From NCBI GenBank assembly GCA_000165345.1, contig CM000435.1, positions 128,001 to 192,000 of the forward strand: a stretch of DNA of 64,000 nucleotides, read 5' to 3'. The notes beneath the pieces are model-generated. The model did not search any database and was not told the origin of the DNA. It saw only the letters and a program-made list of their open reading frames with translations. Positions 46,168 to 48,212 of the stretch are shown one piece after another. Made by a program: the position numbers and the translations under genes. Within the stretch, counting starts at the first letter, position 1; each line of letters opens with the position of its first letter.

Positions 46168-47656
46168 CCAAACATGTAATTACTTATTATTAAGAAAATT
46201 CAATTGGCGCCAAATCATGGCTATCCATTATTTTTTTTTCTGGAGCTAAAAATAAAGCGCATGTATTATAAATTATTGATCAGACTGAATTTAAAAGTAA
46301 ATAAAACTAGAGCCGACTTTTAACTAAAAATTAAATGATCTTCACTCTCAAATCATTTAAATTGCTCTGTTTCTAACATTTTATTAATAACCAATTTTCT
46401 CACTCAAATTGTCTACCCCTCTTTTATTTCAAACTAATCTATTTTTAACCTTTTCAATATTTATTCCGCATTTTTTGTCCCACCGGTACTAAAAAAAAAT
46501 TATACACTATTGGCGCCAAATTTTGTTTTTTAAAAAGTCAAAAAAAAAAGGAAAAAATTAAGACTTGTATTTGGAATATATTGAGAAAAAACAACAAAAA
46601 TTGAATTTGTCAAAAGGTCTTTTCAAAAAGATAAGGTCTGGCTTATTAAATTTCTATATAATTATGGTTCTCTTTCGCGATTTTAGAGAATTTGAAACTG
46701 CTGGCTATTCTTTGTATTCTGAAAATCCAACTAAGGTAAGTTTAAAGCATAAATTTGCTTAGATGATCTAAAATAAATAGGATACAAGGAATTCAGAACT
46801 AAATTTTTTTGGTTCTAACCTGATCTTGATCTTTTTCAATGCATCAAATTTCAGGATAATCCAACTATTATTTTATCCTTTTGTTTTGCTGATCTCAGCT
46901 CATTTCTTTATCTACTTATTGACTAATCCCATATTTTCTCAATTTCATATTCTAAATTAAAAAAAAATTAAACCATCCCAGACTAAACTCGTTATTAAGA
47001 TACAAAAATCAAAAGGTAATAGACTCAGTCTGAGAATAACTAATAACAAGCACTCTGTAAGCCACTATTATAAGACAACAAAAATCAACCAAGATATTGA
47101 AAGGCTTAAAGAACTATTCAGTTTATTTCTCAATTAATTGAAGAATGATCAAACTATATGTTAGATTCGACTCCAAATGAATCATAAATCACATAAAAGA
47201 GTAGTACTTTCGACTTCAACCAAGTACTTTCATAACTAACATATATCTTCTACAAATTAAAGTTTGTTTGTCGATATCCTAAAATATTTTTATTAAACTT
47301 GCTCGCCTTACACAGTATAAAGGAAGCAAATGTAGATTCTTTTCTATATTCATTCTTTTCTTGAAATTTTTTTTTTTTAAAAAAAAAGTATTTCACTCAA
47401 ATTGCACTAATCATTCCGCAAATAATATATGTTTTTGTCTTTATCAATATTCCCCTTTCAACTAATTAAATACATTGCACTAAAAAAAAAGTCTCACAAA
47501 ATATAATAAAACACCTTCATGTTAATTCCTTTTCTGATTACCACTTCCTTATATACTGCCTCATAGGTAACATAAAGGCCAAAAGTGCAAAATATCAACA
47601 ATCGAATTAATTATTTAAATGAAAACCACTTCGAATTATTTACCCTGTTAATCTGC

Positions 47657-47676
47657 ATGTTTTGGCGCCAAAACAT
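47657..47676. promoter_or_regulatory. Perfect 20-bp palindromic E2F-like site ATGTTTTGGCGCCAAAACAT
   Basis: It is seen directly and its reverse complement is identical. It sits in the middle of a 2 kb ORF-poor interval. Confidence 0.6.
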
Positions 47677-48212
47677 TCTAAAAAAAGAGTCATATTCTAC
47701 ATTATAACCATTTTCTTCTTTTTTTTCTTCTCATTATCCTTTCACTTTTATTATAGTCTTAATGAGGTTTAATTACAGTTATGATAAAGAAACAATAGTA
47801 CAAAAGTTAATAGTTATGTAAGGTGGTATATTATTTTTAAAAAACAAGAGTTTGTTGAATATTAAAAGGCGGCACTGGTCTCCTTTTTTTTTAAAAAAAT
47901 AACAAAGGATTATTTTAAAGCTTGAAAAAAAAATGTTTAATGGGTTATAGTAGATGCCATCCATATAATAAAAACCTCTCTTGAATGAGATCTAGTTGAT
48001 GGAAAAAAGGTATGGAAGAATCCTAGAAATTAAAGGTATGGAATGTCAATTCTTCCGTTAAAATGCCATGAGTTGTGTACAATCAACTCTCTAAACTCGC
48101 TTTATTTCTATTCAATAATTACCATTTAAGCTGGAAGTTTTAAATTTTAAAGCTCAAAATTGACTTACTAAGCTCATTTTATGAATGAAAAAAAAAAAAG
48201 TAAATTCAGTAA

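Follow-up and report, generated by a model that had tools for sequence, protein, structure and literature searches.

An intron-split SRP9 gene and an orphan E2F/DP-type box in a Cryptosporidium parvum chromosome 7 interval poor in open reading frames

What occupies a gap of some 2 kb between two Cryptosporidium parvum genes when no long open reading frame (ORF) can be read from it? We addressed this question for positions 46168–48212 of a 64-kb window of chromosome 7, the window being the whole stretch of DNA that was analysed. A preliminary description of the interval had remarked that it held no ORF of more than 65 aa, and had proposed that it concealed either a missing gene or an unannotated non-coding RNA (ncRNA). 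The ORF scan agreed with the remark, the longest ORF inside the interval being 65 aa, and the proposal of a missing gene proved right. Judged by its sequence, the left half of the interval is a two-exon gene on the + strand that encodes SRP9 (75 aa); it is an ordinary small protein-coding gene, split by an intron of 246 nt. SRP9 is the 9-kDa subunit of the signal recognition particle (SRP); in this family, it pairs with SRP14 on the Alu domain of the SRP RNA and mediates translation-elongation arrest in co-translational targeting to the endoplasmic reticulum. As a whole, the interval very probably consists of this gene, a divergent promoter region with E2F/DP-type boxes, and a convergent 3′–3′ spacer with a lone conserved box. 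No new kind of element is present here; SRP9 of C. parvum is already annotated and the E2F/DP1 motif is already known.

The gene begins with the ATG at 46664. Exon 1 (46664–46735, + strand) comprises 24 codons, MVLFRDFREFETAGYSLYSENPTK, and ends in phase 0 before a GTAAGT donor. It is followed by the intron (46736–46981, + strand, GTAAGT...CCCAG) and by exon 2 (46982–47137, + strand), which comprises 51 codons, TKLVIKIQKSKGNRLSLRITNNKHSVSHYYKTTKINQDIERLKELFSLFLN, and a TAA stop codon (47135–47137). The start codon at 46664 and the donor AAG/GTAAGT at 46736 had both been picked out beforehand for a possible small spliced ORF, and both match the conserved SRP9 model. The acceptor proposed with them, tttcag at 46854, does exist in the sequence, but the true acceptor is the CCCAG that ends at 46981 and is conserved in 10/10 species. 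We rejected the site at 46854, which is deleted in chipmunk genotype I and C. ubiquitum and is followed by a frame with stops in other species. The product had been expected to have 47–85 aa and to be partly hydrophobic; the real product is the soluble 75-aa SRP9, and the hydrophobicity was artefactual. The alternative product of 47 aa had no family match in Pfam, and a 44-aa ORF at 46826–46960 falls inside the SRP9 intron and is non-coding.

The spliced 75-aa product is found verbatim in the databases as the C. parvum “Signal recognition particle SRP9/SRP14 subunit” (QOY40389.1 / WRK33242.1). It matched the Pfam family PF05486 (SRP9-21) over residues 6–67 with 28.9 bits against a gathering cut-off of 21 (E = 1.4e-6). 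In a single-sequence search of the PDB the best eight matches were all SRP9 chains (E = 1.5e-4 to 3e-3), and a profile built from eight species gave 8/8 matches to SRP9 chains, the best being 5aox (E = 6.7e-7). From the genus Cryptosporidium, a profile search of 5.8 billion proteins retrieved no more than three SRP9 clusters. The AlphaFold2 (AF2) model predicted from the single sequence comprised a helix at residues 7–12, strands at 28–34, 38–44 and 49–55, and a helix at 59–74, with a low mean predicted local distance difference test (pLDDT) value of 66.6. The best PDB matches found with this model by Foldseek were mostly SRP9/SRP14 chains of Alu-domain structures and were weak (E of at least 0.036, template modelling (TM) scores of 0.45–0.51).

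Mammalian SRP9 (PDB 1E8O, 5AOX, 4UYJ and 7NFX; PF05486) aligns to residues 4–72 of the Cryptosporidium protein, and the pattern EF..A...Y..P.K...V.K....GN-L..+.T is common to both. The two are similar in length, and a helix–three strands–helix order is predicted, at low confidence, for the Cryptosporidium protein; it has 75 aa against 86 aa in mammals, and its AF2 model aligns to SRP9 chains at about 18–24% identity only. A single SRP RNA gene has been reported for C. parvum (PMC9465071), and it lies outside this window.

The orthologous locus was compared in C. tyzzeri, C. hominis, C. meleagridis, chipmunk genotype I, C. ubiquitum, C. canis, C. felis, C. xiaoi, and C. ryanae. SRP9 had the same two-exon structure in each of these nine species and in C. 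parvum, with the same ATG, a phase-0 intron at the conserved position after Lys24, a GT donor (GTAAGT in eight of the ten) and an AG acceptor. Exon 1 kept its length across the aligned species at 76–97% nucleotide identity, and the intron ranged from 96 nt (C. ryanae) to 257 nt. The exons were 83–88% identical to those of chipmunk genotype I and C. ubiquitum; the intron was 54% and 48% identical, respectively. Substitutions relative to C. parvum fell mainly on third codon positions (positions 1/2/3: 14/7/39 in C. canis and 9/2/27 in C. ubiquitum), and 43 residues were invariant in the ten-species comparison. SRP9 behaves in these alignments as a conserved orthologous coding gene under purifying selection.

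Within C. parvum, the interval was identical to CP029786.1, with zero base differences, and differed from the telomere-to-telomere CpBGF chromosome 7 (CP141124.1) at one position, 47119, where the difference is synonymous. Window positions 44901–50400 correspond to CP141124.1 without gaps at an offset of +168,895, so that the interval falls at 215,063–217,107 of that chromosome and the palindrome discussed below at 216,552–216,571. Residue 5 of SRP9 (codon 46676–46678) is Arg in C. parvum and His in all nine other species, including C. hominis and C. tyzzeri.

The SRP9 intron has some features of its own. Its 246 nt are about three times the genome mean of about 86 nt, a value derived from Table 1 of PMC9465071, and on the + strand its 5′ half folds more stably than shuffled sequences (z of about −3 at 46688–46890). 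A small nucleolar RNA (snoRNA) encoded in the intron was considered and rejected: chipmunk genotype I lacks the C-box-like AGATGATC, the intron sequence is unconserved, and in C. ryanae the intron is reduced to 96 nt.

SRP9 has been annotated at this place in some genomes and missed in others. The same 75 aa, with the same exons and position, are annotated in C. parvum as CPATCC_003231 (QOY40389.1, IOWA-ATCC) and WRK33242.1 (CpBGF), and annotated orthologues are CUV07053.1 (C. hominis), KAK9171328.1 (C. meleagridis), and TRY50476.1 (C. tyzzeri); a gene is also annotated in the same place in C. xiaoi. Several of these annotations give a spliced gene of 75–77 aa, on the strand opposite to the flanking genes, with a weak SRP9 Pfam tag. 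The gene is missing from the Iowa II RefSeq numbering, in which XP_628264 and XP_628265 are consecutive. It was left uncalled in the annotations of the C. parvum assemblies GCA_031892065.1 and GCA_048859185.1 and in those of chipmunk genotype I, C. ubiquitum, C. canis, and C. ryanae, and was found intact by tblastn in all of them. In C. felis, a 108-aa gene (positions 4960–5661 of the fetched locus, + strand) is called on the opposite strand over SRP9; this call is probably spurious and on the wrong strand. Because the 246-nt intron splits the gene, SRP9 escapes a simple search for ORFs and went unnoticed in the original annotation of the 2004 style.

The interval is bounded on the left by a membrane-protein gene of 380 aa (45025–46167, − strand, ATG at 46167) and on the right by a gene of 690 aa with two RRM domains (48213–50285, − strand, stop codon at 48213). 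The first product is 100% identical to C. parvum Iowa II EAK90555.1/XP_628264.1. The second, which had been recognised from its sequence as CELF-like, is 100% identical to EAK90557.1/XP_628265.1 of Iowa II, named “Bruno-like protein with 2 RRM domains”. The preliminary description had also taken Cryptosporidium as the source of the DNA, and this was right. The gene order was identical in 10/10 Cryptosporidium species, with a spacer of 1.5–2.0 kb.

SRP9 (+ strand) and the 380-aa gene (− strand) diverge from a region of 496 bp, and each has a box containing TTGGCGCCAA on its side of that region. Box 1, ATTGGCGCCAAAT (46203–46215), is a candidate E2F/DP-type site 37 nt upstream of the ATG of the 380-aa gene and was kept, with variants, in C. 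parvum, C. hominis, C. meleagridis, C. tyzzeri, C. ubiquitum, C. canis, and C. felis. Box 2, TTGGCGCCAAATTTTG (46510–46525), is a second candidate of this type; its core (46510–46519) ends 145 nt before the SRP9 ATG, and its GGCGCC was found at the same position in eight species including C. xiaoi. The preliminary description had listed strong promoter-type elements at 46205 and 46505 and a further motif at 46478. The elements are there, and the further motif, ACCGGTACT, is likewise present, at 46482–46490; the coordinates given for the three were off by 2–5 nt. By position and conservation, one box can be assigned to each of the divergent genes, and we infer that box 2 is a core promoter element of SRP9. 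The two genes would then be transcribed divergently from the 496-bp region, with one E2F/DP-type box near each start.

Boxes of this kind are frequent in the window. Allowing at most one mismatch, TTGGCGCCAA occurred in 13 copies against 0.51 expected, and none of 100 shuffled sequences reached 13. Ten of the copies stand on the 5′ side of a start codon, two fall within ORFs, and the remaining one is the box at 47662, in the right half of the interval. The interval itself carries three boxes that contain TTGGCGCCAA, all of them fitting the E2F/DP1 consensus. TGGCGCCA (E2F) is the commonest upstream motif in C. parvum, listed as motif 3, DTTGSCGCCH (Oberstaller et al. 2013, PMC3734150), and E2F motifs dominate open-chromatin peaks (bioRxiv 10.1101/2025.01.17.633476). 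Boxes 1 and 2 lie less than 150 nt from a start codon, as is typical of the motif. The two copies inside ORFs are exact: one, at 14623–14632, is in the long ORF 13096–14982 (+ strand) and the other, at 39469–39478, is in a 146-aa ORF (39286–39726, − strand). In this window, then, boxes of the E2F type also occur outside 5′ spacers.

Some other elements carried no signal. ACCGGTAC has a single copy in the window and is not significant, since at least one copy appeared in 10% of shuffled sequences. A repeat pair upstream of boxes 2 and 3, CACTCAAATTG / ATTCCGCA, was also rejected as not significant; there are two copies of ATTCCGCA where 0.69 would be expected, and AT-rich DNA can be expected to contain a repeated 11-mer by chance. 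A scan for promoters and terminators of bacterial type is uninformative in a eukaryote.

The remainder of the interval, 47138–48212, is a convergent 3′–3′ spacer of 1,075 bp between the stop codons of SRP9 and the Bruno-like gene. Its outer parts were better conserved than its middle. The flank downstream of SRP9 (47138–47560, + strand) had an identity of 0.71 to chipmunk genotype I and 0.60 to C. ubiquitum, and the flank downstream of the Bruno-like gene (47921–48212, − strand) had 0.70 and 0.61; the middle 360 nt had 0.59 and 0.39, values similar to those of the SRP9 intron (0.54 and 0.48). The outer thirds, some 420 nt after the SRP9 stop and some 290 nt after the stop of the RRM gene, are most probably the two 3′ untranslated regions (UTRs), which converge on a fast-evolving middle.

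Two blocks in these flanks stood out. The most conserved block of the spacer, at 47390–47425 (TTCAC..AATTGCA..ATTCCGCAAATAA), lies about 250–290 nt past the SRP9 stop and combines a WATTGCA-type motif with an E2F-like half-site, the minus-strand TTTGCGGAA. The block can be traced out to C. canis, and the sequence in C. felis is AAGTATTTCATTCCGCA. On the other side, the block AAAGCTCAAAATTGACTTACTAAGCTC at about 48150–48178, 35–60 nt downstream of the Bruno-like stop, is conserved in seven species and may be a 3′ UTR or 3′-end-processing element. In C. tyzzeri, there is a gap of 25 nt at about 47205–47229 in the SRP9 3′ flank, the second gap of that species in the spacer.

The spacers elsewhere in the window had been described as 0.15–1.1 kb long, which is contradicted by gaps of 1.35, 1.66, 2.04, and 2.25 kb between ORFs of at least 130 aa. 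At least one such gap likewise conceals small spliced genes. In an ORF-poor gap of 2.0 kb at 30973–33010, we recognised exon pieces of two further small genes split by introns: an LSM-domain ORF (31520–31753, + strand, Pfam E = 1.9e-17) and a PIG-L (GlcNAc-PI de-N-acetylase) ORF (32326–32550, − strand, Pfam E = 1.8e-6). The same gap also carries a pair of GGCGCC boxes at 32872 and 32878.

Box 3, ATGTTTTGGCGCCAAAACAT, lies in the middle of the convergent spacer. It is a perfect palindrome of 20 bp at exactly the position given for it before, 47657–47676, has the core TTTTGGCGCCAAAA, and is preceded by TGCATG. Unlike typical E2F/DP1 upstream motifs, it sits in a 3′–3′ spacer with no downstream coding sequence, and the lack of a nearby coding target, pointed out from the sequence at the outset, was upheld by tblastx and by the comparison of ORF integrity across species. 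The core was fully or almost fully preserved in C. parvum, C. hominis, C. meleagridis, chipmunk genotype I, and C. ubiquitum, and the preceding (T)GCATG, TGCATG being half of the AP2_1 motif, was also conserved. The box was degenerate in C. canis and C. felis and absent or reduced to a half-site in C. xiaoi and C. ryanae, the latter with a possible half-site TTTTGGCG (E = 0.02, sensitive blastn). In C. tyzzeri, a deletion of 112 bp (aligned at about 47640–47738) removes box 3 and about 60 nt downstream of it; this was seen in one assembly and is possibly an artefact. The full 20-bp extent was restricted to C. parvum and C. hominis, and the conserved core is 10–14 bp long. The 20-bp palindrome is thus a lineage-specific extension of a palindromic consensus, and the pattern fits a DNA binding site better than an RNA hairpin; box 3 is most probably a DNA-level element and not an RNA gene.

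Could the spacer nevertheless encode a structured small RNA, such as a small nuclear RNA, snoRNA, RNase MRP/P, SRP RNA, or telomerase RNA? Its unusual and conserved length and the promoter-type box in its middle speak for such a gene in 47138–48212, and an unannotated ncRNA was one of the two outcomes initially proposed. The searches, however, make it very improbable. The Rfam scan that had been recommended for the interval gave zero matches at the gathering score in the whole window, and a permissive scan of 45900–48500 on both strands gave three chance-level matches with E of at least 0.08, the best being CRISPR-DR at E = 0.08, and nothing at E = 0.01 on either strand. ARAGORN found no tRNA in the interval, and a search for a telomerase template found no telomere-template sequence in it. 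Sliding-window folding z-scores of the spacer on both strands ran from about −2.5 to +2, and the only dips were at the palindrome (−2.51) and at a T12A9 run (−2.52). When the spacer was compared with C. canis, C. felis, C. xiaoi, and C. ryanae by sensitive blastn and by shared 8-mers, there were no alignable blocks and no 8-mers in common, and matches were limited to short, marginal motifs. Folding, conservation, Rfam on both strands, the tRNA search, and the listed entries of the published long non-coding RNA (lncRNA) set considered below provided zero support for an ncRNA gene.

Another early suggestion, that a further protein-coding gene made up of very short exons lies close to the palindrome, fared no better. 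The window does contain several small intron-split genes, namely SRP9 and those represented by the LSM-domain and PIG-L fragments in 30973–33010. Against a further one in the spacer, tblastx with six species gave stop-riddled matches at the nucleotide level in the close relatives and nothing in the distant species; the spacer ORFs of 61, 48, and 40 aa carried frameshifts or interruptions already in C. hominis or C. meleagridis; and every curated annotation that includes SRP9 leaves such a gene uncalled. We regard its existence as scarcely credible.

Box 3 might instead be the promoter of an unannotated lncRNA that runs antisense into the 3′ end of the Bruno-like gene on the + strand, antisense to SRP9 on the − strand, or both. 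Among the motifs in the 100 bp upstream of C. parvum lncRNAs, E2F/DP1 ranks first; about 92% of these lncRNAs are antisense, and they are biased towards the sense gene's 3′ end (Li et al. 2021, PMC7840661). Box 3 resembles the promoters described there in lying just past a gene's 3′ end, the usual start position of antisense lncRNAs (PMC7840661). Its core was kept in five species while its flanks drifted at the rate of the intron, and it is preceded by the conserved TGCATG. The adjoining 380-aa gene, moreover, has a published full-length antisense transcript, Cp_lnc_300. Unlike lncRNAs of the Cp_lnc_300 type, the spacer has no published transcript among the 2021 entries listed: the table held none between Cp_lnc_300 (CPATCC_0006493) and Cp_lnc_326 (CPATCC_0006543), and none of six 17-mers from the spacer occurred in the entries listed of the lncRNA FASTA, from which strings of Cp_lnc_300 were recovered as a positive control. 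A search of Logan assemblies for transcripts of the locus returned genomic contigs only. Absence from the 2021 set is not final, the lncRNA count having risen from 400 to 766 by Iso-seq in the CpBGF annotation, which also includes UTRs (PMC12179316). The loss of box 3 by the 112-bp deletion in C. tyzzeri and its absence or reduction to a half-site in C. xiaoi and C. ryanae also speak against a promoter. On balance, we regard an lncRNA promoter as a tentative reading that is rather unlikely to be correct. It might, with comparably limited confidence, be narrowed to the statement that box 3, together with the conserved block 47390–47425, marks the promoter of a stage-specific non-coding transcript antisense to the Bruno-like gene and/or SRP9. 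That such a promoter was kept in C. parvum, C. hominis, C. meleagridis, C. ubiquitum, and the chipmunk lineage and deleted in C. tyzzeri is an equally doubtful proposition.

The published lncRNA Cp_lnc_300 (Li et al. 2021) corresponds to 45090–46173 on the + strand; it lies wholly antisense to the 380-aa gene, and its end reaches 6 nt into the interval. Upstream of this transcript stands a TTGGCGCCAA box at 44530, a possible bidirectional promoter shared with a gene of 1385 aa.

Alternatively, box 3 may be a weakly constrained or non-promoter E2F/DP site within or between the 3′ UTRs, with no transcript of its own. We give this an even chance. Such a site could affect local chromatin or the adjoining genes, and two of the 13 boxes of the window (14623 and 39469) also lie outside 5′ regions. 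The box appears dispensable in C. tyzzeri, where the deletion indicates that it can be lost, and a transcript from it is not among the 2021 lncRNA entries listed. The 20-bp extension is lineage-specific, and in AT-rich DNA a palindromic consensus of 12 bp would be expected to grow to such a length by chance. Weak constraint is harder to reconcile with the conservation of the core: a GC-rich 10–14-mer has persisted in five species within drifting sequence of 27% GC whose surroundings are 39–59% identical, which indicates selection.

The reading of the whole interval as SRP9, a divergent promoter region, and a convergent spacer with a lone box has several points against it. By the standards of this genome a convergent spacer of 1.07 kb is long, since the clean ones elsewhere in the window measure 149–496 bp, and a spacer length of about 1 kb was kept in 9/10 species; the long spacer of conserved length and the conserved orphan box together hint at an additional function. 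The AF2 model of SRP9 is of low confidence, and the fold matches obtained with it are weak. Both the extents of the UTRs and the roles of the promoter boxes are, in addition, our inferences.

SRP9 is a core component of the secretory machinery, and yet it was hidden here from ORF scanning. The practical worth of the result lies in annotation, as the conserved exon coordinates would allow the deficient annotations to be corrected. Box 3 provides a case, modest but open to testing, of an E2F/DP element that lies away from any conventional promoter; should it drive an antisense transcript, it would be one more example of a phenomenon already described. For the compact genome of C. parvum, the locus indicates that ORF-poor gaps usually conceal small, intron-split housekeeping genes and not new classes of RNA.

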